From an uncultured virus (IMG/VR IMGVR_UViG_3300047157_000165) (taxonomy: Duplodnaviria > Heunggongvirae > Uroviricota > Caudoviricetes), in IMG/VR virus record IMGVR_UViG_3300047157_000165: a stretch of DNA of 64,000 bases; one strand, given 5' to 3'. A program made the translations under genes and the position numbers. The notes beneath the pieces were generated by a model that was not told where the DNA came from, made no database searches, and saw nothing but the letters and a program-made list of their open reading frames with translations. Numbering within the stretch: the first letter of the stretch is position 1; every line of letters starts with the position of its first letter. Positions 1 to 48,481 of this stretch are shown piece after piece.

Positions 1-562
1 GCGTATTAGAAGCATTCCAAGAAGGAGTGTTAGGTATTTTAATATAATGTATATTAACGTTCCCAGTTAAAGTACTAGGAAGTAACTTAACTGCGTCATC
101 TAAATTTGAACCATCTGTTATTTGTTGTCTGTAGTATATAGGATAAGAACTACTAGGTGAGATAAGTTTAGAAGATAAAACATAAGGAAGTTCTGATATT
201 TTTATTTCTTCAAACTGTGTTAAATTGTCACTTTTATATATAGATATTAATCTATAAAGATCAGTAACATTATCTGTTAAATTTATTAAATCATTTGTTG
301 TATCTATAGCAACAGCTTTTAATTTTAAAAAATGATCTATTTTTTCTTTTATATTATTTGCTAAATCGCCATAATCGTCATTAGAACCAATAACATTTGA
401 TTTTGATAAAACTCTATTATAATCATAAAAAGTTTTTTCTAATATTTCTAGTTGAGCCTGCTGAGCTAATTTATTAAATTGGCCAGGTGTTAACTGTCCT
501 CTCTGTTCTCTATTTAAAATTGTAAGTACAGTTTTGTATATTTTATCTACACTTATAGCCAT
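1..562 (-). CDS. Virion structural protein (tail ring/adaptor-like), truncated by window edge
   Basis: Manual translation from ATG at 562: MAISVDKIYKTVLTILNREQRGQLTPGQFNKLAQQAQLEI..., open to position 1; lies downstream of the capsid block. Confidence 0.6.
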   Translation of the reverse strand, partial: MAISVDKIYKTVLTILNREQRGQLTPGQFNKLAQQAQLEILEKTFYDYNRVLSKSNVIGSNDDYGDLANNIKEKIDHFLKLKAVAIDTTNDLINLTDNVTDLYRLISIYKSDNLTQFEEIKISELPYVLSSKLISPSSSYPIYYRQQITDGSNLDDAVKLLPSTLTGNVNIHYIKIPNTPSWNASNT

Positions 563-583
563 ATTTTGTTTTTTTTTATAATA

Positions 584-608
584 GTTAGGCCACATAAAGC
601 GGCCTAAC
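584..608 (-). terminator. Hairpin, possible terminator or processing stem
   Basis: GTTAGGCC...GGCCTAAC inverted repeat just after ORF 621-1358; weak U tract. Confidence 0.45.
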
Positions 609-620
609 CGTTATACGTGA

Positions 621-1358
621 CTATTTTAATCTTTTTTCCAATGTTTGGAAAACTTCAACTCCTTCATCTGTTTTGAACCAAGCTGCAAGTGCAGAGTATG
701 GATTTTCATCAAAAGGTACAGTCATTAATTTTCTACCATTACTAACCCACTGAAAAGTTCTTTGGTCATTTGATAGTTTTATTATGTTTGCTTCAACGCC
801 TTTCAAGCCTATGTTTCTTAAGTTTACATTTTCATCAGCGGCTAGTTCTAAAAATAATTCTGGATCATTACTAGCAAAAACTAATAAATCTCTTTTTATT
901 TCTTTAGATGTCATGTTAGCAACAGAAGATCCTACGTTTACTCTTACTATTGCTTCTGCTTCATCTATATTTAAATTTTTAGCTGCATTTAAAGCTTCTA
1001 TTCTTTGTTCAAGCTCTACTAAATCATCTTTAGCTTCTTCTTGTGGATCATATTCAAAGTATAATTTATTTAATCCAGGGTGATATAAAGATAATAATTT
1101 TTGTAGTGTTTGTTTTTGTTTTGGTACCATCAACATACCATCTTCGAATACAATGTGAGCTAGTCTAGCATCACCCTTGAAATCATCTACAAATGGAGTT
1201 TTTTGGTTAACAGTATATTTTAATTCTCTTTCAAAACCTTGTTCTTCATCAAACCAAAATATATTTTTACTTTTCATTGTAAAGGTTAATGGAGAAAGTT
1301 CATTTTTAAGTATGTATGTTCTATCCTTGATAGACCATTTATTTTTTGTTTTTGTCAT
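621..1358 (-). CDS. Hypothetical protein downstream of major capsid, probably virion-associated
   Basis: 245-aa ORF in the head module. Confidence 0.6.
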   Translation of the reverse strand: MTKTKNKWSIKDRTYILKNELSPLTFTMKSKNIFWFDEEQGFERELKYTVNQKTPFVDDFKGDARLAHIVFEDGMLMVPKQKQTLQKLLSLYHPGLNKLYFEYDPQEEAKDDLVELEQRIEALNAAKNLNIDEAEAIVRVNVGSSVANMTSKEIKRDLLVFASNDPELFLELAADENVNLRNIGLKGVEANIIKLSNDQRTFQWVSNGRKLMTVPFDENPYSALAAWFKTDEGVEVFQTLEKRLK

Positions 1359-1384
1359 GATATAATATAATAAAAATTAATAAA

Positions 1385-1422
1385 AGTAATAATTACCCCC
1401 GTTAATAAAACGAGGGTAAAAA
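1385..1422 (-). terminator. Probable intrinsic terminator after major capsid gene
   Basis: Minus strand TTACCCTCGTT-loop-AACGGGGGTAA followed by TTATTACTTTT. Confidence 0.55.
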
Positions 1423-1434
1423 TTACGTTAAGTA

Positions 1435-2830
1435 TTATGCAAAGTTACCAAACAGTACGAAGTTATTCGCAGCTTGTGTAACTAAACATCTTTCTGATAG
1501 GTAATGTACCTCCATCGCATCAAGATCGCTAGTAGATGCTCCACCAACAGATCCTGTGATCCAAGATTTTAATTTTCTATCATCAGATTGTGAAGCTCTG
1601 TATCTTACGTGTAAGAAAGGTCTTTTGATGTTTTTACCAAGAATTTGGTCATAAACAGATGAAGTACCCGCTGGTACTAATATACCTGTAACATCAGAAG
1701 CAATTTCTCCTCTAGTAGATGCATCGTTTAAGTATTTCCAATCAGTTTTGTAGAAGTCATAAGAACCTCTTCTAAAACCAGAAAAACCTAAGTTGATTGC
1801 CATATCTTCAGAATTATTAAATAATCCCCAAGAAGTACCACCAGAACCATAAGAGTTTTGAGCAGCTAACATATCATCAATATTTAAAGATAAATCTCTA
1901 TTTAAAAATAATACATTTTCCTCAATAGCTCCTTGCTTATCTAATTTCTTAAGCATGTTATCAAAATCAGCTAAATCATCAGCAGCAGAAGTTTCCATCA
2001 ATACCATCTTCATGGATGTGACCTCTATCTTTTACCGCAGCAAATAAACCTTCAGTTCCTGCGATGTCTACTAAATTTGTATTAACGTTTTTCTCTGATT
2101 CAATCATAGCCATTTCTAAGTAATCTTCGAATCTCTTTCTAGTATCACCTTCAGCTTTGATATACCATAAGTAACCTGACTGACCAGCTTCACCTGTAAC
2201 TTCAACCCATCCAATTTGAGAAGCATCAGATCCAGAGATCTCATATTTATCTTTTAAGATAATTGGGTTGTTAGTGTAAGACTGGAAACTTGGCTTAACC
2301 GCTTCATTCATACCAGTGTCAGCTTTTTTGAATTCAGAACCGTATACGAAAAGCTTTATAACACCACTTCCTGTTGCAATACCAGCGGCAACACAACCCG
2401 TAGAGTTCGTGTAACATTTAACTGTTATTTGTGCAGCACCAACTGCTGATACATAAGCTTTAACAACATCTGTTCCGTCGCTCACTACCACTGTTTGCCC
2501 TACTCTAATAGCATGACTAGTAAGTCCTGAAATAACGTTTGCACCACCTGAATCAGCAGCACAAGTACCACCTGAATAAGATAGGTGTAATCTTCCTTGT
2601 TCTGACCAAATGATTTGATCTGAACTCATAGGCATCTCTGCGCCTACCATTTTTAAAAACCCACCAACAGATCTATCACCGAACTTTTCGATCTCTGCTT
2701 CATATAAGTCTGGAAGATATTGTTGTGCCCAGCCTTTTGTTGCAGAAGATGTGAAGTCAATGTAATTTGTTGATAAGGCTTGTTTAACTGGAGCTGGAGT
2801 TGTAGTTCCGCTCCCTAATGTAATTGCCAT
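1435..2830 (-). CDS. Major capsid protein, split by one frameshift near 1992-1994
   Basis: ORFs 1979-2830 and 1435-2013 join as ...HEDGIDG-TSAADDLADF... if one A is removed from GGAAAC; follows scaffold and portal; capsid-like C-terminus EVHYLSERCLVTQAANNFVLF. Confidence 0.8.
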
Positions 2831-2848
2831 AATTTGTTTTTTTTAAAG

Positions 2849-4033
2849 TTATTTTTTAATTTTAATTCTTAATTTTGAACTATCATCGCCGCTTATAGCT
2901 CTCACTTTCATTCCACCAGCATCTATATTTTGACCAATCCTTCTAGGATCCATATTAATATTTTTTGCTTCTGAAGACATTTGCTTTATAGCATCTGACT
3001 TTCCTTGTTCATAAAAATGATTTGCTATTGAATCAGCATTTCTAGCAGCATAAAGTGCTTTATGATAACCATTAGCATCTTTCAACATGTTTTTGTCATC
3101 TAAGAACGTCTCAAATGCACTTAATATGTTACTTTGTGCTTCTTTAGTTGTCTGAACATCTTTAACGTTATATCTAAATTTATTTTCACCGACTTTAAAC
3201 TCAAAACCTTTGAATTTATCACTGAAAACACTATTAGTTTTATTTATAAAGTTTTCGTTAGACTCTTGCTGCTGAGCAGTTAGTTCGTTCTGCTCTTTTT
3301 TATAATTATCATAAAAATTTACAGCTTCTTTAATTTCCGTAGAAAAATTAGAACCAGATTTTATGTCATTATAGTATTTACTTTTTGCGTTAGCTAAATA
3401 TGTTTTTGCGCTAGCGACTTCTTCTTTGTAGTTTAATTTTTTTCTTTTAATATCTCTTTCTTTATCTATTTCATCATCATAAGAAAATTTATCTTCTAAC
3501 AAGAAATTTATTTCCTCACTATTTAAATGAGGTTTTGTTGATTTATAGTACTCTAGCAATAAGTCATCATCACCTAGTGATTCTACATCAACGTTTAATT
3601 TTACATAATCCTGTAATGTTCCTCCAGTTTCACTCATAAAATCCATGAGTTTCTTAACATCTTCAGGATATTCTAGTTTTACTTCTTCTTGTAAGACTTG
3701 ACTTTCTTCGGGCTGCTTTTCTTGTATTTGCCCTTGCTCTTGCACTTGTACGCCATCTTTTTCTTCTTTAATTAATGTTATTACTTCTTCTTGTTCTTGA
3801 GGTTCAACTTGTTTTTCTTCCTCTTTAATCTGTTCAACTGGTTCCTCTTGTTTTTTAGCTTCTTCCACTTGTTCGGCAGGAGGTTGTTCAACGGTTTTTT
3901 CTTCTGTTTGTTTAGTTAAATCAACTTTGTAAACACCATCTTCTTGTTGTCCACTAGTTTTATCAACTAAATCTTGTTCTTTTTCAGCTGTAGACATATT
4001 GTCTTCAACTGATTTCATTTTGATTTCTGACAT
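2849..4033 (-). CDS. Putative capsid scaffolding protein
   Basis: E/Q-rich, acidic, helical 394-aa ORF between portal and capsid. Confidence 0.6.
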   Translation of the reverse strand: MSEIKMKSVEDNMSTAEKEQDLVDKTSGQQEDGVYKVDLTKQTEEKTVEQPPAEQVEEAKKQEEPVEQIKEEEKQVEPQEQEEVITLIKEEKDGVQVQEQGQIQEKQPEESQVLQEEVKLEYPEDVKKLMDFMSETGGTLQDYVKLNVDVESLGDDDLLLEYYKSTKPHLNSEEINFLLEDKFSYDDEIDKERDIKRKKLNYKEEVASAKTYLANAKSKYYNDIKSGSNFSTEIKEAVNFYDNYKKEQNELTAQQQESNENFINKTNSVFSDKFKGFEFKVGENKFRYNVKDVQTTKEAQSNILSAFETFLDDKNMLKDANGYHKALYAARNADSIANHFYEQGKSDAIKQMSSEAKNINMDPRRIGQNIDAGGMKVRAISGDDSSKLRIKIKK

Positions 4034-4059
4034 AATAAAATATTATAAAATTTAAAAAA

Positions 4060-6479
4060 TTATCTTGGATCAAATTGCTCTAATCCAAATCCACCTAAGT
4101 TATCAAATCCTGCAGATTCAAAATCTTTTAGGTGGTTTTCCAGTTTGTCGCTGGTTTATAAGCTCACTTTGTTGTGTAGCTTGTATTTTTGTTCTTTTGT
4201 CTTTTCTATTTTCTTTGTATTCTTCTTTAGTATTTATCACCTGTGTTTCAGCTTGTTTAAGTTGCATGTTAAGTTGAAATTCGTGAAACATTAATTCTTT
4301 TTTAATTTCAGCTTCTCTTTCAAGCTTCTGTATTTCAAATTGATGTTCAATTTCTGACATCTTAGCTTTACCTTGCATTATTACCTGCTCTTTTTGAGCT
4401 TCACTCTGAGCAGCAGCTTGTGCAGCTTGTGCGTTTGATCTACTTTGAGCTTCGATATTTTCCATTTGAAGTTGTCTATCTTTTTCTTGTTTTTTTCTTT
4501 CTTCTTAGTTTAAGTAATTGGTTAGCTAATTTTAAATTCTTAACCTCTCTAGCATCAATAGCATCTTCTATTTCTATTTGTTTTTGTTGTAATGCCATTT
4601 GAATATTATTTTCAAGAATTTGTTTTTGTTCTTCGTCTGGAGCTAATTCCAAAAATATACCAAAATCATGTAAGTGAAGAGTTTGTATTTCTCTTAAACT
4701 AGCTACATTAAATTTACCAACACCATTTACAAATGCTTGAGTTGTATTTCCATATTGCAATACATCAGATACTCTTAGTGATATTGCTTCTGCTGTCTTT
4801 AAAGTTAAATATAATCCAGCTTGTAATACGTGTCTAGTAGCAACATTTGAATTAGCAGCAGCTAACTTTTGTAAGCCTACTAAAGCATTTTTATCAGGCA
4901 TACTACCATCTCTTGCTTCATTTAATCCAGTAACATCTCTAATCATTTGTAGATAATAATTATAAGATTGAATTAAACTAGCTATCTTTTGTCCACCAGA
5001 AGATGATTGTAATTCTTGAACTGGCATACGACTATGATTATATTCACCATCACCAGTCATAGATCTACCTATAACAGAACCAGTTTGAAAATACATATTT
5101 AATGCTTCTTGTGGGTTATAATTAGTTCCATTTCCTAAGTCTATTTCAGCTATACCATCAGCATCTAAATAAACACCATCTGGAACCATTCTAGATAATA
5201 CTTGTTGTAATTTTAAATGAGTCAATTGAACCATATCCGCAAAAGTTGTCATACGACCTACTAAAGATTCTATCTTACCTTTATAAATTCTAGGAGCAAC
5301 AATGCTATAGGATAGTTGAGCTTTTGTTATATCAGAATATGGTCTTGTCATATTTTCGGCTAACTTCCATTTAAGTAATTTATTTGATCCAATTATTTTA
5401 GCACCTTCATAAATAACCTCTATTGATCTATTTACTTTTTGAAACCTATTTTCTGAATCTTTAGGTGGATTAAATTCATCTGTTTTCTTTATAGATTTTT
5501 GAGAACCAGTTGAAGTTTCTTTTATTTTATAAACTTGATTATTAAATGTTTTATATTCAAAGTATAAAATATAAACATAATTGTTATCCGGTGAATCAGA
5601 TGAAGAATAAGATTTATTATATAACATAGAACTATTACTAGATCCTTCTATTTCTTCAATGTCTTCACTAGTTAATTCAGGATATTGTTTTTTCAAATCA
5701 ATTAAACTGACTCTTTTAACTTCACCTACATAATATATGTCATCAAAGTATGGTGATTCAGTATATGAGTAAACTAAATCTGCAGGATCAACATAATCTA
5801 TTTTTATACCTTCAGATGTATTAAAACTATTTTTTACAGCTCCAATACCTACAACAGCTAAATCATAATCTAATCTCTTTTTTAATAAATCATATTTGTT
5901 GTAATCAAAAACATTATTTATTGCTTCTTCTTCAGCTATTTCTATTGATTGTTTATAATCAAGTTGCATATGTAGCTCTAACTCCTCTTGTGTTTCTGGT
6001 AGAGTTTCTTTATCATTATTATACATGTTAATAGAAAAAGAATTTTCTAACTCATCAAATAATGATTTGTTTTTCATATCTCTTACAATAGAATCAACAT
6101 AACTTGTTCTAGTATCTATAGAAGCTTGATCTTGAGAATAAGCTTTTATATCATACATTCTTTCTGATATACCATTAACTACAATGTCAACAAATTTTGG
6201 AATAATAGGTACTGGCTTCCAGTCTAAATTTAAATAAGACAAATCACCATTTATAGATAATTCATCTTTATATTTTTGTATACTTTGCTCCCCTCTAGCG
6301 TAAAGTCTTAATCTATGAAATTGGTCTCTGTTAGCGTAGTATCTAACGGATCCTGAGTCCCTTTTAAACCATTCAGCTTCTATAGCTTTTGCAATCTCTA
6401 ATCCATAAGGAGATGAAGATTTTTCACCGTCACTAGCTGATTGACTAGGAAATTGTCCTTTTGTTATTTGTTTTGACAT
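4060..6479 (-). CDS. Portal protein, split by two homopolymer frameshifts (4490-4496 and 4126-4129)
   Basis: Directly after terL; removing one A at each site joins 4476-6479, 4118-4465 and a tail ...PPKDFESAGFDNLGGFGLEQFDPR*. Confidence 0.8.
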
Positions 6480-6482
6480 TAA

Positions 6483-8687
6483 TTATATTATTTTTGAAGA
6501 AAATCCTCTGTTATCGTATTTTTTAAATTCAAAATCTAATGTTTTTACTATTTTATCTGCTCTTGGAGTATATAAATGTCTATTGCAAGCCATTATAGCT
6601 AATCCAGAACTTATAGTAGCATCAAATTTTGTTCTGTTGTTTATATCAAACTTCGACCAGTCATTTAACGTTCTATTAAAATACATGGAACCGTATGATC
6701 CGTCTGGTTTTATTCCTACATGTTGCTGTATATATGTTTCTATTGCAGCAGCATGAGCTTGTTTAATATCTTCACCTGTATTAGGTATACCACCAACTTC
6801 TTTTTCGGTTGTTGATAATCTGTTATATGTTTTATCAGGTCTATTCATAGAATAACCTCTATAACCTCTTCTTTTTAAATAATAAAGTAAACGAGGTTTG
6901 TTATTCTCTGCTAATAATGGCATTCCATAAAAAATTAAAGACATAAGCACATCTTCAAAAAATATTTCTGCCGTTTGTGGTCTAGCAACATATTCTAAAA
7001 AAAACGTATTTACTGGTGAATCTTCCATGCTAAACTTAGTTAAACCGTGTAAAGAACCTTTAGAACCTCTTCTGTCAACAGTACCTGATATATCATAAGA
7101 GTCACAACCAAAAGCACCAATATGTTCATTGCCTGGTTTTTTAAAACCATTTTTCATTACAACATTATTTTGTAGGTTTAATGGAGGAATCCATGAAATA
7201 TAAAACCTACCTTTAATATCAGGATAAAAATTTACTTCAGTATCTTTAACTCCATTTTTCCACTGAAAATTACCTCTTGTAACTATGCCACTACTTTTTA
7301 AATCTTCATTATAATCTATTTGCTCATATAACTTAACTAGGTTAAATATACTATTTTTTGTTTCATCTCTAAAAGCATGCTCTTCAGTTCTAGGAAACTG
7401 TCTATAAAACTCATTTAAAGCGTCATGGTTACTTTTTAAACCTTCTGCTTCATTCTCCCAGTGTTCAACGACACCGATGTCGATAGCTTCACCATGAGGT
7501 CCAATAGCGGCTTCTTTTGGGGTGTCGAATACAGGTAGTCCATAAGTATCAATGAATCCTTCGTAATTCCATTCCATAGGTATGAACAAACTATATAATC
7601 CAGAACGAGTCTGTCCATTTTTATTTCTTTTTGTGACATCTGAATCATAATATAATTGTTTAAAATTATTTCCACCTTTGTCAAGAGAATTACTCGTTGA
7701 CCCCATCATACATTTACCTATTATTCTCGAACCGAGCCTGAGGGTGGTTTTTGTGACACGCCAGTTATTGAGGATGTTTTCCGGACGCTCCCATTTTCCA
7801 GCTTCATCATGGACGAGAAGTGCGAGCTTCTCTCCATCATAGGAATTATCTCCGGTATTTTTCCAATCAATGGTGGTGTCCAATCCTTCCAACTCTTGGG
7901 GTTTATCCTTCGACTCGAGTCTTTTACGTGTAAATTTCGAAGCGGGTACTCTGTACGCAAGTTCTGTCTTGGGGCGATCCATACCGTCCTGTATGGGTCT
8001 GAAAAAGAATGGATAATTGATCGATATTGGTACCACTTTATCTGTGAACATTTTTTTCGCATCGGCTCCAGATTTGGACAGTATTCCGTACCGTGCATCG
8101 GAAGATATGGTAGCGAGGTTAACTGTCTCCCCGGATGCCATAAACGAAAAACCGCTACGTCTATTCTTGAGATAGCACATTCCGTAACACCTTGTATCTG
8201 CTTTACACGCTTCCCAATAAATAAAGAATAATCGATTGGCTTCTCGAAAGTCTGGCTTCCCAACATCAATCTTGGTCCACTGCAAGTACATGTAGTGAGT
8301 GCCAGTAACATAAGTAGAGTTACCTTTGTTATTGAACCAATAACCTTCTTCACGTCTTGTAAATTCTCTATCAATGTATTCATGCCATTTTTGTTTAAAT
8401 TCATCTGGTAATTCTTTCCAATCAAATATGCTTTTTATTCTTTTAAGCTCTTTAGGATATTCGTGTGGTTTCCATTTATTGTTTTCATTAGAAACTTTTT
8501 GTGTTTTAGGTAAAGCTATTTTTAAATTCTGTATGCTATACACATCTCCAATTTGCCCTGTTTTACTTACAACAACAATATCATATTCTTTATTATAACC
8601 ATACTTCCATTTTTTAGATTTGTTTAATCTATTAATAGTAGTTTTTTTAATAGGTTCTATTATTTTATATAAACTTTGTTCGTACAT
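6483..8687 (-). CDS. terL: Terminase large subunit
   Basis: Walker A-like KNRRSGFS, Walker B LLVHDEAGK, nuclease motif FGCDSYD. Confidence 0.9.
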   Translation of the reverse strand: MYEQSLYKIIEPIKKTTINRLNKSKKWKYGYNKEYDIVVVSKTGQIGDVYSIQNLKIALPKTQKVSNENNKWKPHEYPKELKRIKSIFDWKELPDEFKQKWHEYIDREFTRREEGYWFNNKGNSTYVTGTHYMYLQWTKIDVGKPDFREANRLFFIYWEACKADTRCYGMCYLKNRRSGFSFMASGETVNLATISSDARYGILSKSGADAKKMFTDKVVPISINYPFFFRPIQDGMDRPKTELAYRVPASKFTRKRLESKDKPQELEGLDTTIDWKNTGDNSYDGEKLALLVHDEAGKWERPENILNNWRVTKTTLRLGSRIIGKCMMGSTSNSLDKGGNNFKQLYYDSDVTKRNKNGQTRSGLYSLFIPMEWNYEGFIDTYGLPVFDTPKEAAIGPHGEAIDIGVVEHWENEAEGLKSNHDALNEFYRQFPRTEEHAFRDETKNSIFNLVKLYEQIDYNEDLKSSGIVTRGNFQWKNGVKDTEVNFYPDIKGRFYISWIPPLNLQNNVVMKNGFKKPGNEHIGAFGCDSYDISGTVDRRGSKGSLHGLTKFSMEDSPVNTFFLEYVARPQTAEIFFEDVLMSLIFYGMPLLAENNKPRLLYYLKRRGYRGYSMNRPDKTYNRLSTTEKEVGGIPNTGEDIKQAHAAAIETYIQQHVGIKPDGSYGSMYFNRTLNDWSKFDINNRTKFDATISSGLAIMACNRHLYTPRADKIVKTLDFEFKKYDNRGFSSKII
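7721..8383 (-). CDS. Candidate overprinted gene inside terL (alternate frame)
   Basis: Stop-free alternate frame of over 220 codons that coincides with atypical GC-rich terL codons; N-terminal hydrophobic stretch ending LALTTC. Confidence 0.4.
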   Translation of the reverse strand: MNTLIENLQDVKKVIGSITKVTLLMLLALTTCTCSGPRLMLGSQTFEKPIDYSLFIGKRVKQIQGVTECAISRIDVAVFRLWHPGRQLTSLPYLPMHGTEYCPNLEPMRKKCSQIKWYQYRSIIHSFSDPYRTVWIAPRQNLRTEYPLRNLHVKDSSRRINPKSWKDWTPPLIGKIPEIIPMMERSSHFSSMMKLENGSVRKTSSITGVSQKPPSGSVRE

Positions 8688-8959
8688 TATCTAGATCTTC
8701 TTTCAGCAAAACCTTTAAAACTCTGTTCCTTTACTTCTATAGGTTTATTTTGTAACAAACTTTCTTCTTCTTGTATTCTATTTAAAATCTCAAAAGCATC
8801 AAATATAGCTAGTTTTTTTGTAGCTGCAGCATTTTTCAATCTATCAGCAGATATATCATCATCAGAATCAACAATAGGTTCTTTAGCAACTTTTATTAAT
8901 TCTTCTACAGCTTTATGTCCAGCTTGGATTATATTCTTTTTCGTGTCCTTGACGTTCAT
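8687..8959 (-). CDS. Possible terminase small subunit
   Basis: 90-aa helical ORF abutting the terL start; positional inference. Confidence 0.4.
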   Translation of the reverse strand: MNVKDTKKNIIQAGHKAVEELIKVAKEPIVDSDDDISADRLKNAAATKKLAIFDAFEILNRIQEEESLLQNKPIEVKEQSFKGFAERRSR

Positions 8960-9500
8960 ATTTTATACAAATTGATTTAATTGGAACTCTATATAGCCTT
9001 TCATTGTCTATAATAAATTCATATTCACTATTTGGAGTAAAACCAATTAGTGTATTTTTTTTAATTAATTTATTGTTTTCTATGTATTTTACAACACCAG
9101 TTAATTCAATTTCTTTTTCTTGAGAAAAAATATCATTGTTTTCAATAGGTTTAACAAAACAAAATTCATCAATAGATTTCCATCTTTTATCTTGCTTGTA
9201 CATAAAAATTTGATCTAAATAAATAAAATACTTATTTTCTTTAAAGTAAGATGAGCTATCTACCTCTTCACCTCTCATATTACTATATCTTCTAAAAATA
9301 TTGTGATGAACTATAACTTCATCTCCTATTTTTATATTTGTTTTAACATTTTTAGGTGTAGATATTACAACAGCATTTCTATTCACATATCTATGATCTT
9401 GTATTTCAGTGTTTAATATTAAATTATTTTCACCTATTTTTTTTGTATTATTATATCTTGATTTAATAGGTTCAACAATAAAAGCATATAAACTCTGCAT
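8913..9500 (-). CDS. GroES-like protein with two apparent GroES-type repeats
   Basis: FIVEP...AVVIST...IKIGDEVIV, then FCFVKP...GVVKY...IGF...EFIIDNERLYRV. Confidence 0.55.
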   Translation of the reverse strand: MQSLYAFIVEPIKSRYNNTKKIGENNLILNTEIQDHRYVNRNAVVISTPKNVKTNIKIGDEVIVHHNIFRRYSNMRGEEVDSSSYFKENKYFIYLDQIFMYKQDKRWKSIDEFCFVKPIENNDIFSQEKEIELTGVVKYIENNKLIKKNTLIGFTPNSEYEFIIDNERLYRVPIKSICIKYERQGHEKEYNPSWT

Positions 9501-9721: not shown

Positions 9722-10183
9722 TTATTTTTTAAATATACTCGCTGCTTTTTCTCCACTTCGTCCTCCAAAATAGGCTAATACAACTGACATCATAACTTTT
9801 TCAAAAGTATCGTTCCATGTTTCACCTATATGGAATGGTATTGATTCTACACTATCTAATATTCCGGCTAATGAAAATATAACAATACACCACACTAAAA
9901 CTAGCGGGCGTACATTTTTAGAAAGCCATGAATCTGACATAGAATCTGCTTGCCATCTTGAAGTGATGCTTTCCATTTCTTTATTTTGTTGTTCAAATAT
10001 AAGCTGTTGTAATTTTATTTTATCGTCATTACTTACGTCAGATTTACCTATTGCTGCTATAGCTTCTGCCGGTGTTGAAGCTCCACTAATTAAATTACCT
10101 AAAGTAGGGTTTACTAACGATGCAGCACCGAATAAAAGTTTACCTACAGTAGTTTGTGCAAATTTCTTTTTTTTATCACTCAT
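9722..10183 (-). CDS. Holin-like membrane protein (3TM/GTA holin type)
   Basis: RWQADSMSDSWLSKNVRP, two hydrophobic helices, YFGGRS. Confidence 0.65.
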   Translation of the reverse strand: MSDKKKKFAQTTVGKLLFGAASLVNPTLGNLISGASTPAEAIAAIGKSDVSNDDKIKLQQLIFEQQNKEMESITSRWQADSMSDSWLSKNVRPLVLVWCIVIFSLAGILDSVESIPFHIGETWNDTFEKVMMSVVLAYFGGRSGEKAASIFKK

Positions 10184-10345: not shown

Positions 10346-11761
10346 TTAATCTAATATTGATTGTAAAAAATTAATTCTATTTCTTTTAGCTAATCCTGGA
10401 TCTTCTTTTTTATTTTCTTTTTTGAAATTTATACCTGAAAAAAGCGCATCACCACTAAATTCACCTTCATCTTTTGATTGTAATAATTGTTGTTCAAACC
10501 ATGCACCAAACTCCATATTTTGGTTTTTATAAGGATTAGGACCTTTTATTTTAAGTTCTTGTTTATATGCTAAACCTAAAATAGCATCTAAACCAGAAAG
10601 GTGAGTTGGGTTTGTAGGTGATTCTTGACCAAAACCAGATATACTTCCTGGTAATGTTGTTTTTATTTTACCATAAGGGTACTCTGATCCATGTAAACCT
10701 TCGTGTAACGATAATTCCTCTACATTTTTTATAGGTACTGTCGGTATAAAATAACCACCCTGAGAACGATTTTGACCATAATGTTTACCTATATATATAT
10801 TTTTAGGTCCTAATAGATATGTAGCCTTTTTGCTAAGACCAGTATGTTTTCCTTTTTCATCATATAAAGAAGGCCTTGATAAACCAAAATTTAACTGTTC
10901 TTCTAAATTGTATCTATTGAAATCTCTGGCATGGTAAGAATACTTATCTGTGTTATACTTTCCTCTAGATTTATCTAATTCATTTACTTTTATAAAATCT
11001 TTATCCTTTGTGTCTAAAACGGTTCTATAAATATTTTCTGGATAATATTTATTATAATATTTATCATAACCATAATATCGTTCCATGTTATTACTTTGTA
11101 TTTGGTATCGATTTTCATGTTCTTCGCTACCCTCAAAATAATATTTTTCACCAACACTTGAAACTGAATCCTTTAATTTCATTTTGTTTCTAATGTTAAT
11201 ATAATTATCTGTTTTGTCACGTATAAAACCATCTTGAGAATAAGTTGATAATGAACTATATGTATCAAAATTTACATTTTTATTTATTAAATTAACAAGC
11301 TTTTTATTTCTTTGTTCAGAAAATCTTTTTATTAATGCATTATTTTTTAATTCACCTAAATTAAAATAAGTTTTTATGTATTTACCATATTCATCATATC
11401 CTTGATTCTTATTGAAAATAACGAAATTCTCTCTTTCTATGCTATCACTTTTTTCTATACCTTCTTTATTAAAAAAATCTCTATATCTCAATGCTAATTT
11501 TAATCTATTAGATTCTTTTATATTTATATTATCAGTTTTATCATTTGTATCAAAAAATGTTTTATAATTCTCATATTCTTCTTGTGTAGGTGCTTTATCA
11601 AAATCTATATTATCAGAAAAATATTTTGTTTTGTCTTTATATTTAGGTAATTTGTTTTCATTAATCTTACGTGTTAGTAATGAATTGACAGACCTTTCTA
11701 ACCTTGGTTTGGCTTTAAATTTTTTTAATAATTTAAGTATGTTAGGATCTAGTTCTTCCAT
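10346..11761 (-). CDS. Hypothetical protein with HExxH motif
   Basis: 471 aa; SLHEGLHGSE near C-terminus. Confidence 0.55.
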   Translation of the reverse strand: MEELDPNILKLLKKFKAKPRLERSVNSLLTRKINENKLPKYKDKTKYFSDNIDFDKAPTQEEYENYKTFFDTNDKTDNINIKESNRLKLALRYRDFFNKEGIEKSDSIERENFVIFNKNQGYDEYGKYIKTYFNLGELKNNALIKRFSEQRNKKLVNLINKNVNFDTYSSLSTYSQDGFIRDKTDNYINIRNKMKLKDSVSSVGEKYYFEGSEEHENRYQIQSNNMERYYGYDKYYNKYYPENIYRTVLDTKDKDFIKVNELDKSRGKYNTDKYSYHARDFNRYNLEEQLNFGLSRPSLYDEKGKHTGLSKKATYLLGPKNIYIGKHYGQNRSQGGYFIPTVPIKNVEELSLHEGLHGSEYPYGKIKTTLPGSISGFGQESPTNPTHLSGLDAILGLAYKQELKIKGPNPYKNQNMEFGAWFEQQLLQSKDEGEFSGDALFSGINFKKENKKEDPGLAKRNRINFLQSILD

Positions 11762-12797: not shown

Positions 12798-13238
12798 TTA
12801 ACGTTCTTTATCTTTTATCATATCATCTAAAGCTTTATTAAAAACTTTATCAGTATATGATTTATTTTTATAAAAAATATTTTTTCTAGTTACAGGAACA
12901 TCTTCGTCACCCAATAATATCCTGTAAACTCTACTAATTAATTGTTTTGTTTTAAAAGAAACACAATATATACTATACTTTATAGTTGTTCTATTTCTAT
13001 TTCTCCATACATCTATCCAACCTTCATCACGTAATCTTTCCCAACGATGTTTATCCCAACTGTAAGTGTAAACACCATCTTTAAAATCTTTTATAGAAAA
13101 TCTATTTAAACAATCTAAATATATAAGAAGTTCTAAGTCTGCTTCTTTTATTTTATATGTTTTACAAGCCCACTTTCTAACTATTCTATAATATTTTAAT
13201 ATTTGTAATTCTTTTAAATCACTTGAAGAGAGTTTCAT
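12798..13238 (-). CDS. Hypothetical protein, possibly winged-helix
   Basis: 146 aa; ADLELLIYL...RLRDEGWI pattern. Confidence 0.5.
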   Translation of the reverse strand: MKLSSSDLKELQILKYYRIVRKWACKTYKIKEADLELLIYLDCLNRFSIKDFKDGVYTYSWDKHRWERLRDEGWIDVWRNRNRTTIKYSIYCVSFKTKQLISRVYRILLGDEDVPVTRKNIFYKNKSYTDKVFNKALDDMIKDKER

Positions 13239-13495
13239 ATAACAATAACAACGTCTTGTTGTCTAATAACATAATATGTTTTATTATTATATTCAACCAT
13301 ATGGCCAGCATGTTTATCATAATAAATTTTATCATTTGTTTTTAAACCATCTGTTTGGTTGCCAACACTTATTATGTGACCTTTTAAATAACGTATATCT
13401 TTTTTATCATTATTAGTTAATATTAGTCCATTAACTTTTTTTGATTCTTCTTTTATTTTTTCTATTATTATGTAATTATTTATCGCCTGCATCAA
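13235..13495 (-). CDS. groES: Co-chaperonin GroES
   Basis: NNYIII...GLIL...GHIISVG...DKIYYDKHAG...VIRQQDVV; adjacent to groEL. Confidence 0.85.
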   Translation of the reverse strand: MMQAINNYIIIEKIKEESKKVNGLILTNNDKKDIRYLKGHIISVGNQTDGLKTNDKIYYDKHAGHMVEYNNKTYYVIRQQDVVIVI

Positions 13496-15035
13496 TTCTC
13501 ATATTAGAAATTACACAATCTGCAGATATTATAGTGCTAACAACACTGACTGCGTTTTTTAAAGCTGTTTTTGTAACTAATACAGGATCTATTATTCCAG
13601 CCTTTAACATATTAGTTTCTTTACCATTTACAACATTTATTCCAAATCCTTTTTTATTACTCTCTACGTATGGTAAACCAGCATTTTCTATTATAACAGA
13701 ATAAGGATATTTTATTGAGCTTAACAATATTTCTTCTCCTATATTTTCAGCTTTAATTTTTTGTGATGCATTTAAAAGTGCAACTCCACCTCCTGGAACA
13801 ATACCTTCTTGTAGCGCTGCTTTAGTTGCATATATTGCATCTTCTACTCTGTCTTTTTTTTCTTTTAACTCTACTTTTGAATCAGCACCAACTTTTATAA
13901 TAGCAACAGAACCTGTCAACATCGCTATTCTTTGTTCTAATTTATTTTTTATAAAAGCATTAGTTTCTATTTCTATTTTGCTATACACACTTTTTATTCT
14001 TTCTTTAGCTTCTTCATTAACTTCTTCTATAGTAAGAACAGTGTTTTTATCATCTGTAATGGACTTTAAGCATTCACCTAATACATCAGGTTGGATTAAA
14101 TCTAAATCATCTCCTAATTGCTCATCTATTATTTTAGCTCCGGTTAAACAAGCTAAATCTTCTATTGTATCTCTTTTTGTAGAAGCAAAACCAGGAAGAT
14201 CAACAACATTGACTTTAATATTACCTTTAACTTTGTTAGTTAACAACGCAGACATAGGCTGCTGATCTACAGAGGCTACAATTAGTAAGCTTCTTTTTGT
14301 TTTAATTATATGCTCTAAAACTGCTTGTATTTTTCTAATGTTAGTTATTGGAGAAGCTACTATTAACACATAAGGATTTTCTAAAACAGATTTATCTTTA
14401 TTTTCATTAGTAGTCAAATGATTAGATTTTAAACCAGAGTCAAACTGTATACCTTCTACATTTTCGTAGTAAGTTTTTTCAGTCTCCGACTCTTCCATTA
14501 ATACAACTCCATTTTTTCCAACTTTATTATAAGCATCCGCAATTATAGAACCTAAAATATTATCATTGTTAGCTGATATAGTACTCACATCCTTGAGCTT
14601 ATCATGTTTAACATCAATAGAGATTTTATCTAGATAATTGTTTATTTTAAATAAACCAGTTTGTAAACCTAATTTTATATCTCTTATATTATATTTTTCT
14701 TTTTTACAATTTTTTAAAAGTGAGTAAGCAAGGACGGTTGCCGTAGTGGTACCGTCTCCTGCTTCTTTCACTGTGTTTTTAGCAGCTTCTTTTAAAAGTG
14801 TTGCTCCTATGTTTTCTAAAGGATCAAATAATATTACTGATTCAGCTACAGTTACACCATCTTTAGTTATAACTGGTTTGCCTAATGAATCTTCATATAT
14901 TACACATTTTCCTGAAGCTCCTAGTGTAGACTTAACAGCTTGTGTTAATTTTTCTACACCTATCATTATCTTATTGTTAGCATCTGCCCCGAAAGACAAA
15001 TCTTTAACTATCTCACTTGGGTTATTATATTCCAT
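13476..15035 (-). CDS. groEL: Chaperonin GroEL
   Basis: ITKDGVTVA, AGDGTTTA, EKKDRVEDA, GIVPGGG, GIIDP motifs. Confidence 0.95.
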   Translation of the reverse strand: MEYNNPSEIVKDLSFGADANNKIMIGVEKLTQAVKSTLGASGKCVIYEDSLGKPVITKDGVTVAESVILFDPLENIGATLLKEAAKNTVKEAGDGTTTATVLAYSLLKNCKKEKYNIRDIKLGLQTGLFKINNYLDKISIDVKHDKLKDVSTISANNDNILGSIIADAYNKVGKNGVVLMEESETEKTYYENVEGIQFDSGLKSNHLTTNENKDKSVLENPYVLIVASPITNIRKIQAVLEHIIKTKRSLLIVASVDQQPMSALLTNKVKGNIKVNVVDLPGFASTKRDTIEDLACLTGAKIIDEQLGDDLDLIQPDVLGECLKSITDDKNTVLTIEEVNEEAKERIKSVYSKIEIETNAFIKNKLEQRIAMLTGSVAIIKVGADSKVELKEKKDRVEDAIYATKAALQEGIVPGGGVALLNASQKIKAENIGEEILLSSIKYPYSVIIENAGLPYVESNKKGFGINVVNGKETNMLKAGIIDPVLVTKTALKNAVSVVSTIISADCVISNMRIDAGDK

Positions 15036-46756: not shown

Positions 46757-48481
46757 ATGTGGAATAATAATTGGAAAAAAGGTGTTGATTACCCAAGCTG
46801 GGGAGACACCGATGTGTACAAAAAAACAATTGGCGGAGGCTACTTGTTAAAAGGTGAAACACCTTGGGATGCGTATAAAAGAGTTTGTAATACCGTTGCT
46901 AGACGTTTAGAACGTCCTGAAATGGCTGATAAATTTTTTGAATACATTTGGTCGGGTTGGTTGTGTCTTGCATCTCCTGTGTTGTCTAACACGGGTACAG
47001 ACAGAGGTTTACCTATCAGTTGTTTTGGTATAGATGTCGCTGACAGTATATACGATATAGGTAGTAAAAACCTAGAAATGATGTTACTCGCAAAGCACGG
47101 CGGTGGAGTAGGTATCGGAATAAATCAAATCAGACCCGCTAGTGCAAAAATTAAAGGAAATGGAACAAGTGACGGAGTTGTGCCTTTTTGTAAGATATAT
47201 GATTCAACAATACTTGCCACTAATCAAGGATCTGTCAGAAGAGGAGCTGCATCAGTTAATATCAATATTGAGCATTCCGACTTTGAAGAATGGCTTGAAA
47301 TTAGAGAGCCTAAAGGAGACGTTAATCGTCAATCCCTCAACCTTCACCAGTGCGCTGTGGTCGGCGACAAGTTCATGCGAAGAGTTGAAAGTGGAGATGT
47401 TGAAGCTAGAAAAAAATGGGGAAAGCTTTTACAAAAGCGTAAAGCAACTGGAGAACCTTATATATTATTTAAGGGAAATACAAACAAAAATAACCCAACA
47501 GCTTATAAAAAACACGGGTTAAAGGTTCATATGACTAATATATGTAGTGAAATAACTCTACATACAGATGAATCACATAGTTTCGTTTGTTGTTTATCTA
47601 GTTTAAACATAGCTAGATATGATGAATGGAAAGGAACTAATTTAATACACGATGCCACTTGGTTTTTAGATGGTGTACTAGAAGAGTTTATACAGAGATC
47701 CAAAGGTAAAGTTGGTTTTCATAATTCTGTGAGATCTGCTGAAAAAGGTAGAGCTTTAGGATTAGGCGTTTTAGGTTGGCACACGTACTTACAAGAAAAA
47801 GGGCTACCATTTGAAGGTTTATTAGCACAATATGAAACTAGAAAAATATTTTCACAAATTAAAATTGAATCTGAACGAGCTAGCATGGCTCTTGCTGAGA
47901 CTTTTGGCGAGCCTCTGTGGTGTGTTGGTACTGGTATGCGCAACACTCACTTGCGTGCTATTGCTCCCACTGTATCTAACAGCAAACTTAGCGGCAATGT
48001 ATCACCAGGAATAGAGCCTTGGGCTGCTAATGTGTTTACAGAACAATCAGCAAAAGGTACGTTTATACGTAAAAACCCTACATTAGTTAAACTTCTTAGA
48101 AAACTTAAAATAAACAATGAAACTATTTGGTCGAAAATATTAAAAGATGGAGGATCTGTGCAAGGATTAAAAGAACTCAACAAGGTAATGTTAGGTCCTT
48201 ATAATGATATACCTGCTAAAGATGTGTTTAAAACTTTTAAAGAAATTAATCAATTAGAATTAATTAACCAAGCCGGGATAAGACAACAATATATAGATCA
48301 AAGTGTAAGTTTAAACTTAGCTTTTCCTAGTGTTGCAACACCTAAGTGGATAAACAAAGTTCATTTTGAAGCTTGGAAAAAAGGTATTAAAACCCTATAT
48401 TATACTAGAACAGAGTCAGTTTTACGTGGGGATATTGCAGAACAAGCAATGGATGAAAATTGCTTAGCTTGTGACGGATAA
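46757..48481 (+). CDS. nrdA: Ribonucleotide reductase class Ia alpha subunit (short, no obvious ATP cone)
   Basis: PISCF, RRGA, TNICSEI, AIAPTVS, KTLYY, C-terminal CLAC. Confidence 0.92.
   Translation: MWNNNWKKGVDYPSWGDTDVYKKTIGGGYLLKGETPWDAYKRVCNTVARRLERPEMADKFFEYIWSGWLCLASPVLSNTGTDRGLPISCFGIDVADSIYDIGSKNLEMMLLAKHGGGVGIGINQIRPASAKIKGNGTSDGVVPFCKIYDSTILATNQGSVRRGAASVNINIEHSDFEEWLEIREPKGDVNRQSLNLHQCAVVGDKFMRRVESGDVEARKKWGKLLQKRKATGEPYILFKGNTNKNNPTAYKKHGLKVHMTNICSEITLHTDESHSFVCCLSSLNIARYDEWKGTNLIHDATWFLDGVLEEFIQRSKGKVGFHNSVRSAEKGRALGLGVLGWHTYLQEKGLPFEGLLAQYETRKIFSQIKIESERASMALAETFGEPLWCVGTGMRNTHLRAIAPTVSNSKLSGNVSPGIEPWAANVFTEQSAKGTFIRKNPTLVKLLRKLKINNETIWSKILKDGGSVQGLKELNKVMLGPYNDIPAKDVFKTFKEINQLELINQAGIRQQYIDQSVSLNLAFPSVATPKWINKVHFEAWKKGIKTLYYTRTESVLRGDIAEQAMDENCLACDG

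Follow-up and report, generated by a model that had tools for sequence, protein, structure and literature searches.

Genes embedded out of frame within other genes are a known kind in bacteriophages, as with E in the +1 frame of the scaffold gene D in PhiX174 and the outer-membrane spanin gene Rz1 in the +1 frame of Rz in lambda. In T7, genes 19.2 and 19.3 lie inside gene 19 (the gene for the large terminase subunit) and are not known to have an established function or to be translated; gp19.2 has been called a conserved T7-like protein. For mycobacteriophage Patience, two embedded, same-strand, out-of-frame open reading frames (ORFs) were found by mass spectrometry and, according to the authors, are generally not conserved (PMC4324244). 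Here we consider a comparable arrangement in a 64,000-nucleotide stretch of DNA from an uncultured virus of the Caudoviricetes (IMG/VR record IMGVR_UViG_3300047157_000165; ‘the window’ hereafter refers to this whole stretch), in which a 234-codon ORF (7721..8425, minus strand) sits in the +1 frame of terL, the gene for the terminase large subunit (6483..8687, minus strand; 734 amino acids). We propose that it is probably a real overprinted gene, encoding an N-terminally anchored or secreted protein, the translation of which we infer from the sequence. Like the Patience ORFs, it occupies another frame on the same strand inside an annotated double-stranded DNA (dsDNA) phage gene; unlike them, in that they come with peptides and are generally not conserved, it is conserved in dozens of diverged relatives and is known from sequence alone (PMC4324244). 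At the level of titles and abstracts, a literature search found no description of a gene embedded in the terL of these phages.

The host gene matches a PHROG profile over residues 25-731 (phrog_6681, E 2.9e-165), and tblastn pairs it, at 32-62% identity, with genes annotated as terminase large subunit in phages of Flavobacterium, Cellulophaga, Tenacibaculum and Maribacter; terL gave no match in Pfam or in a sequence search of the PDB. We take KNRRSGFS (amino acids 174-181) to be Walker A-like and LLVHDEAG (amino acids 290-297) to be Walker B-like, and the embedded ORF overlies both. It runs from a TTG at 8425 to a TAA at 7721-7723, with candidate ATG starts at 8404-8402 and 8383-8381, and with TTG/GTG codons also at 8425, 8374 and 8353. 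Five codons past the TAA lies a +1-frame TGA (7706..7708, minus strand) forced by a Met-Met pair of terL (ATG ATG), which marks the farthest possible 3' end; in the relatives’ alignment the second Met (M229) is invariant and the first (M228) at least 90% conserved. Position 1 of each embedded codon is position 2 of a terL codon. NTA before a purine in terL is TAA or TAG in the +1 frame, and a T at the third position of a terL codon is the second position of a +1 codon, giving hydrophobic residues. The original prediction, which named this ORF together with an 82-codon ORF in the same frame (7436..7684), is borne out on its raw observations: the ORF list confirms both on the minus strand, the GC counts it gave are exact (29/60 at 7921-7980 against 15/60 at 7201-7260), the peptide from ATG 8383 reads as described, and terL does use the codons ATC, CTC, GTC and TCG where the ORF overlies it.

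The length of the open frame is far from what codon usage would yield by chance. When synonymous codons were permuted gene-wide for 35 window genes in 5 alternative frames (175 tests, N=300 each), the terL +1 run ranked 1/175, its 237 stop-free codons comparing with 64 on average and 122 at most in the shuffles (z=10.1), so that a codon-shuffle null on ORF length, put forward earlier as a check, leaves the run far outside. A stricter shuffle, confined to the tract of terL that is rich in GC at third codon positions (GC3) and retaining that tract’s own codon usage, still separates the observed frame from its null (longest +1 run 201 versus 87, P about 0.001; 3 stops versus 6.7±1.5), with no stop depletion in the +2 frame of the same patch (16 observed versus 15.3). 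The proposal that terL codon choice avoids NTA-purine stops over 7721-8425 is likewise upheld: NTN codons inside the ORF end in A in 0/29 cases before a purine and in 9/20 before a pyrimidine, and across 16 relatives that keep the frame open the figures are 0/402 and 0.39 of 328, respectively. Zero NTA-purine inside an ORF holds by definition, so the evidence lies in the size of the contrast, NTA not being avoided per se; outside the ORF and in relatives that lack it, the frequency of A at position 3 (A3) before a purine is 0.40-0.45 (0.45 in the remainder of the window’s terL).

Relatives were drawn from a scan of IMG/VR (80 loci, terL 73-81% identical, of which 74 full-length sequences were codon-aligned with the window and 6 truncated ones dropped) and from a metagenome scan with terL residues 1-362 (80 loci at 75-100% identity, 11 of them excluded for want of the exact anchor motif). 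In the 136 of 144 sequences with enough flank and no N, the +1 run was measured from His131 of the invariant THYMY motif, and its length is bimodal: 92-191 codons in 63/136 and 9-60 codons in 73/136. After dropping sequences more than 92% identical, there remain 59 ‘carriers’ (at least 112 codons), 68 ‘non-carriers’ (at most 60) and 1 intermediate. Carriers differ from one another at about 0.46 of third positions, which implies that the stop-free state has been maintained repeatedly and not inherited once; individually, 17/18 carriers have fewer +1 stops than their shuffles at P<=0.05, the exception being relative L123 (P 0.39). Selection keeps the +1 frame stop-free, and the dual coding claimed for 7721-8425 is supported by its openness in 63/136 diverged relatives. 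It had been foreseen that frequent stops in close homologues would tell against the gene; such stops do occur in about half of the relatives, but relatives fall into two distinct classes that also differ in the other signatures described below, so that openness reads as presence or absence of a gene and not as noise. In the terL tree, carriers occupy a deep and diverse half that includes the window, while a large, shallower clade is without the ORF; a further 7 non-carriers sit within the carrier part of the tree. Four cultured or more distant phages (MW202828, elemoF, phi13:2 and phi38:1; 62-36% identity) have neither a +1 run of at least 60 codons in the region nor an annotated overlapping coding sequence, which, with the deep spread of carriers, fits birth of the gene within the group. 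The open run begins at varying places, 26 to 76 codons before His131; many carriers have a +1 stop 26 codons before His131 with an ATG directly after it, and non-carriers have +1 stops 4 codons before and 9-11 codons after this residue.

The second line of evidence concerns what the frame would encode near its start. A hydrophobic segment with a Cys motif (VIGSITKVTLLMLLALTTCTCSG; 8276..8344, minus strand) overlies the terL motif THYMYLQW, and here carriers share the codons CCT ACT TAT ATT ACT GGY ACT CAT TAC ATG TAC TTG CAG TGG, which in the +1 frame read LLILL(A/V)LITCTCSG; with the A-ending codons of non-carriers the reading is QHI*QVH. A carrier-specific peak of synonymous conservation spans terL codons 116-145 (8250..8342, minus strand), synonymous-codon identity being 0.69-0.77 among carriers and 0.45-0.56 among non-carriers, and the helix/flank ratio of composition-corrected third-position distance is 0.63 in the former and 1.29 in the latter. 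Over ten helix codons, carriers have T at position 3 (T3) at 0.77 and A3 at 0.01, against 0.37 and 0.39 in non-carriers, and the Kyte-Doolittle (KD) hydropathy of the +1 reading is 2.91 against 0.29; that is, a run of terL codons ending in T is how selection maintains the hydrophobic character of the helix. For the second Cys, terL has to use TTG or CTG, rare codons for Leu; this Cys is found in 93% of carriers, the same position being Tyr in 71% of non-carriers, and the net charge of the n-region is +2.1 in carriers and +0.2 in non-carriers. From ATG 8383 the predicted product has 220 amino acids with a single predicted membrane helix (highest KD mean over 19 residues, KD19, of 1.83, reached at residues 14-32) and carries 32 K+R versus 16 D+E. 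The reading of this peptide as a membrane anchor, made in the original prediction, fits both this maximum and the synonymous constraint on the helix.

In the body of the ORF the shift is in the opposite direction. Carriers have T3 of 0.27 and C at position 3 (C3) of 0.23, non-carriers 0.42 and 0.11, and the corresponding +1 hydropathy (KD) is -0.48 and +0.36; selection lowers the hydrophobicity of the body by replacing T-ending terL codons with C- and G-ending ones, and it is this replacement that makes the patch GC-rich. That patch is the GC3-rich tract of terL at 7698..8327 (minus strand), with GC3 of 0.45 versus 0.17 in the flanks and GC of 0.441 versus 0.311 and 0.256 for the remainder of terL, in a window of overall GC 0.31; at gene nucleotides 361-990 (window 8327-7698) terL GC3 is 0.33-0.53, and elsewhere it is 0.03-0.37, mostly at most 0.20. 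T3 raised in the helix and lowered in the body is as expected if selection acts on a +1 protein whose anchor is hydrophobic and whose body is hydrophilic.

Synthesising these observations, we propose as the probable explanation a +1 gene lying between about 8404/8383 and 7721, for which ribosomes would initiate internally on the late terL mRNA. The encoded protein would begin with a short positive N-terminus, continue through one hydrophobic helix into Cys-Thr-Cys-Ser-Gly, and end in a hydrophilic, basic body, about 170-190 residues long, for which neither a fold nor relatives can be recognised. Most likely it would be a bitopic (N-in, C-out) or a secreted envelope protein, membrane insertion, the choice of start codon and the biological role all being read from the features above; as to the role, our guess would be an envelope-directed late function, for example lysis control or the exclusion of other phages. 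The gene would be present in about half of an uncultured group of marine, Flavobacteriia-type podophages, and decayed or absent in the rest. The stretch was found in 20 sequencing runs of 16 studies, 6 of these runs being RNA libraries; two of the RNA libraries, each from a different study, contain contigs that match the window exactly. The material mapped from four runs consists of contigs, which carry no RNA ends, strand, expression level or frame, and whose uncovered parts mean nothing; the RNA-library contigs are compatible with transcription of a late operon, are not frame-specific, and could also reflect DNA carry-over.

Several results weigh against a gene here and must be set beside those above. 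Translation is itself an inference. Start codons do not separate the two classes: an ATG lies between the upstream +1 stop and the helix in 58/59 non-redundant carriers, but also in 58/68 non-carriers when stops are ignored, the upstream ATGs being non-discriminating because terL residues for the most part dictate them. Between 8380 and 8700 the coding strand has no Bacteroidetes-type -7 promoter motif (TAnnTTTG), a negative that says little since the window as a whole holds 93 matches versus 113 expected. Searches of the +1 product against protein families, structures and a protein atlas gave no usable match: Pfam returned only the sub-threshold hits Ectatomin (14.6 bits) and Spo7_2_N (14 bits) against a cut-off of 25, there were 0 PHROGs families and 0 hits in a PDB profile search, and the 58 protein database matches are all gene-finder copies of the same embedded ORF, unnamed or labelled ‘hypothetical protein’, and do not count as independent evidence. 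An AlphaFold2 model of the product (27-sequence alignment) has a mean predicted local distance difference test score (pLDDT) of 46.2 and is confident only for a helix at 2-34; saying this, a control at the same depth, terL residues 100-430 (31 sequences), a domain that must fold, reached only 37.8, so the model cannot tell disorder from fold and carries no weight. The body shows no synonymous suppression, with synonymous-codon identity among carriers of 0.37-0.53, at or below that of non-carriers, and its corrected third-position distance relative to the flanks is 1.49 in carriers and 1.07 in non-carriers, so it is not under ordinary purifying selection on its sequence. The synonymous-site suppression suggested earlier as a check is thus seen at the helix and not over the body, which is kept open and hydrophilic while its sequence changes freely or even at an accelerated rate. 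Where the frame ends differs among carriers, at 112 to 191 codons past His131, the longest forms ending five codons short of the TGA forced by Met-Met. The gene is also dispensable, being absent from 73/136 relatives, including the 7 nested among carriers. Finally, the patch is mosaic in at least one pair: the window and relative L088, itself a carrier, differ at 0.107 of third positions in the ORF tract and at 0.33-0.39 in the flanks (for relative L087 the values are 0.456 and 0.34-0.38), which suggests that recombination has moved the tract from one terL lineage to another.

This mosaicism is one reason to ask whether the frame is a by-product of composition, that is, an untranslated, GC-rich tract with few stops, recombined for instance from a higher-GC relative. 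Relatives of higher GC do exist (L031, L034 and L038; locus GC 0.39-0.42), GC3 and +1 openness correlate across relatives, and GC3 drops right after each sequence’s own +1 stop, although these last two patterns are expected under either direction of causation. The antisense frame of the window is also long, at 176 codons, and GC3 is raised (0.42 vs 0.19) at non-NTN codons, which could never make a stop, and so by more than stop avoidance alone needs; this excess is explained by selection for a hydrophilic +1 body. Against composition, stops remain 2-3 times as frequent, and open runs do not reach half the length, in shuffles that preserve codon usage; the +2 frame is undepleted, and NTA occurs at background rate wherever it is harmless to the +1 frame. 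Carriers with GC3 as low as 0.26-0.33 are still stop-free (in L117, at GC3 0.26, there are 0 stops vs 6.2 expected, P<0.0005; L114, L159 and L106 are alike), and the helix shifts towards T and not towards GC, such that the opposite third-position shifts of helix and body cannot have a GC-rich recombinant tract as their source. Nor was a donor found, the nearest patch among the 74 IMG/VR relatives differing at 0.42 of third positions and the sole closer patch, that of L088, belonging to a carrier. The recombinant-tract explanation, named in advance as one that would undo the original prediction, thus fails on the opposite T3 shifts, the stop-free low-GC3 carriers and the context-specific stop avoidance; composition is largely refuted here as an account of the frame, and we regard it as very unlikely. 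It would be more improbable still, in our view, that the conserved, GC-richer tract serves as RNA or DNA (as a folded RNA, or as a DNA site for packaging or regulation) and that the open frame within it is incidental. What speaks for such an element is that about 90 nucleotides at 8236-8323 are nearly invariant among carriers and that community contigs pile up there, to a depth of 391-4665 in 3/4 runs and 28-45 in the fourth, with tens nearby. The conserved positions are strictly 3-nucleotide periodic, however, being terL third positions occupied by T and giving hydrophobic residues in one frame; the RNA folding of the segment is no better than that of shuffles (z -1.28, 19/200 shuffles as good), and phase-specific stop avoidance over 600 nucleotides would be left unexplained.

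A different kind of alternative accepts that the frame is read but denies it an independent gene, the product being either a TerL fusion made by programmed +1 frameshifting or the outcome of unavoidable internal initiation, kept harmless by staying hydrophilic and non-aggregating. The lack of sequence constraint on the body, its variable length, the varying start of the open run and the largely terL-forced, non-discriminating ATGs are all what one would then see. Yet a harmful product could be removed by one stop, as in non-carriers; the upstream +1 stop followed by an ATG leaves only a short stretch for a frameshift site, and one without elevated synonymous conservation; and the selected helix, together with the second Cys and the positive n-region, looks like positive design. 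We consider this alternative unlikely. The original prediction had raised the possibility of a lipobox and a spanin-like lysis factor, and a lipoprotein acting in this way would recall lambda, where Rz1 is likewise an embedded +1 late gene; a charged n-region and a hydrophobic core (KD 2.91 over 10 residues) do precede a Cys, as in lipoproteins, and a holin homologue lies 1.3 kb upstream. The lipobox does not survive inspection: tested as [LVI][ASTVI][GAS]C, a PROSITE-type pattern, its canonical form is present in 0/59 carriers, the four residues ending at the Cys being LITC in 24, LTIC in 14, LIIC in 14, LTTC in 6 and PITC in 1. Immediately ahead of the Cys, T and I are the only residues that the His-Tyr-Met-Tyr of terL permits. 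A second hydrophobic segment (KD19 of at least 1.6) is also found in 0/59 carriers, the window’s value being 0.92, and no inner-membrane spanin gene serves as host or neighbour; the mature part, of about 175-190 residues with 5% Pro, is unlike the short, Pro-rich outer-membrane spanins. As lipobox, second membrane segment and partner gene are all missing, the spanin-like factor finds no support, whether as the unimolecular type of T1 gp11 (no C-terminal membrane segment in any of the 59 and no canonical lipobox) or as the outer-membrane partner of a two-component, Rz1-type pair (no canonical lipobox, and terL as host gene). By the features tested, the predicted product is outside any spanin or lipoprotein family, and we would give a spanin-like lipoprotein hardly any credence.

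Returning to an overprinted gene for an anchored or secreted protein, the contrast between its conserved anchor and its presumably exposed body of about 180 residues, which changes about 1.5 times faster than neighbouring silent sites, invites a further and more tentative speculation: the body may be under diversifying selection in an envelope arms race, through exclusion of rival phages or evasion of host defences, with the pattern of presence and absence among close relatives in this widespread phage group reflecting birth followed by repeated death. We hold this to be possible, but doubtful as it stands.

The 82-codon ORF at 7436..7684 (minus strand; TTG start), which shares the +1 frame and which the original prediction had included among its probable overprinted genes, does not share these properties, and only the part of that proposal which concerned 7721-8425 is sustained. 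Taken alone, the window has 1 stop over this interval vs 3.1 under the null (P 0.04), but in relatives there is no stop depletion (3.96 vs a null of 4.65 in carriers, and 5.47 vs 5.09 in non-carriers) and in 11/11 relatives displayed stops interrupt its 3' third; we reject it as a gene, since +1 stops in relatives match the null, and judge it a chance ORF. Within the same interval, at 7532-7637 (minus strand; terL codons ~351-385), synonymous-codon identity is high in carriers (0.68-0.84) and also raised in non-carriers (0.51-0.69). This segment covers the conserved terL motif MEWNYEGF and shows no +1 stop depletion, and community contigs pile up at 7532-7619.

Two further ORFs emerged from the shuffle scan. 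The antisense ORF of 140 amino acids at 7809-8231 (plus strand) lies within the 176-codon stop-free run opposite the GC-rich tract (z=5.9); it is long only in the window, where there are 2 stops compared with 5-21 in relatives, and is probably a side effect of that tract. The second strongest outlier of the scan is a 132-codon +1 run (null mean 52, maximum 78, z=9.3) which contains an inner ORF of 126 amino acids from a GTG (47142-47522, plus strand), inside a 574-amino-acid gene (46757-48481, plus strand) that, in our own reading of its sequence, is presumably a ribonucleotide reductase large subunit; a further case of overprinting may account for this run, as may the composition of the region.

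As for the neighbourhood of terL, the portal gene comes after it. The holin homologue (9722-10183, minus strand; phrog_3427, E 3.8e-17) is on the same strand as terL, and beside it a 471-amino-acid protein with an HEGLH motif and no PHROG match is encoded at 10346-11761 (minus strand). A GroEL homologue (13476-15035; phrog_5725, E 1.5e-129) and two GroES-like proteins (13235-13495 and 8913-9500) are also encoded on the minus strand, one GroES-like gene lying two genes upstream of terL, likewise in Cellulophaga and Flavobacterium relatives. The portal profile phrog_6547 appears split over consecutive ORFs at 4118-4465 and 4476-6479 (minus strand; profile positions 5-691 in one ORF, 697-814 in the next), and the virion protein profile phrog_13704 over consecutive ORFs at 1435-2013 and 1979-2830 (minus strand; positions 16-267 in one, 268-446 in the other); these could be real splits, recoding or assembly errors.

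The wider interest of the locus lies in the nature of its host, terL being the most used marker gene of tailed phages and one that is treated as coding for a single protein. If our proposal is true, a second gene of 660-700 nucleotides is accommodated in the ATPase domain of terL, and overprinting would make sizeable genes even in large dsDNA phages and within highly conserved enzymes. Standard annotation would miss such genes (there is no overlapping coding sequence in four related GenBank records), and a local GC3 anomaly could mark a second reading frame and not necessarily horizontal transfer. Codon- or GC-based analyses of terL in this group would be biased over codons 88-322, and the split between carriers and non-carriers offers a natural experiment in how an overprinted gene arises and disappears.

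How, then, does the locus compare with the systems it most recalls? Like T7 genes 19.2 and 19.3, it is a smaller ORF in another frame inside the terL gene; it is unrelated to them in sequence. T4 holin T (class III) resembles the predicted product in size, at about 220 amino acids, and in a plan that runs from a short cytoplasmic N-terminus through one membrane helix to a large C-terminal part, but there is no family match and the body here is without conserved sequence, such that the resemblance is one of layout only. Lambda Rz1 has in common with the ORF its place as an embedded +1 late gene, an N-terminal export signal and a Cys; it differs in that here the canonical lipobox is missing (0/59), the host gene is terL, and the ORF is much longer and not Pro-rich. 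PhiX174 E differs as well, since we are dealing with a dsDNA podophage of about 60 kb that has its own holin homologue, and with a predicted product of about 220 amino acids, not 91, that has no sequence similarity to E; neither MraY inhibition nor lytic activity is implied by the comparison. Nonetheless, it is to PhiX174 E that the layout appears most alike: a reading frame that lies entirely inside an essential late gene but in another phase, with a conserved N-terminal helix and a basic, loosely constrained C-terminal part.

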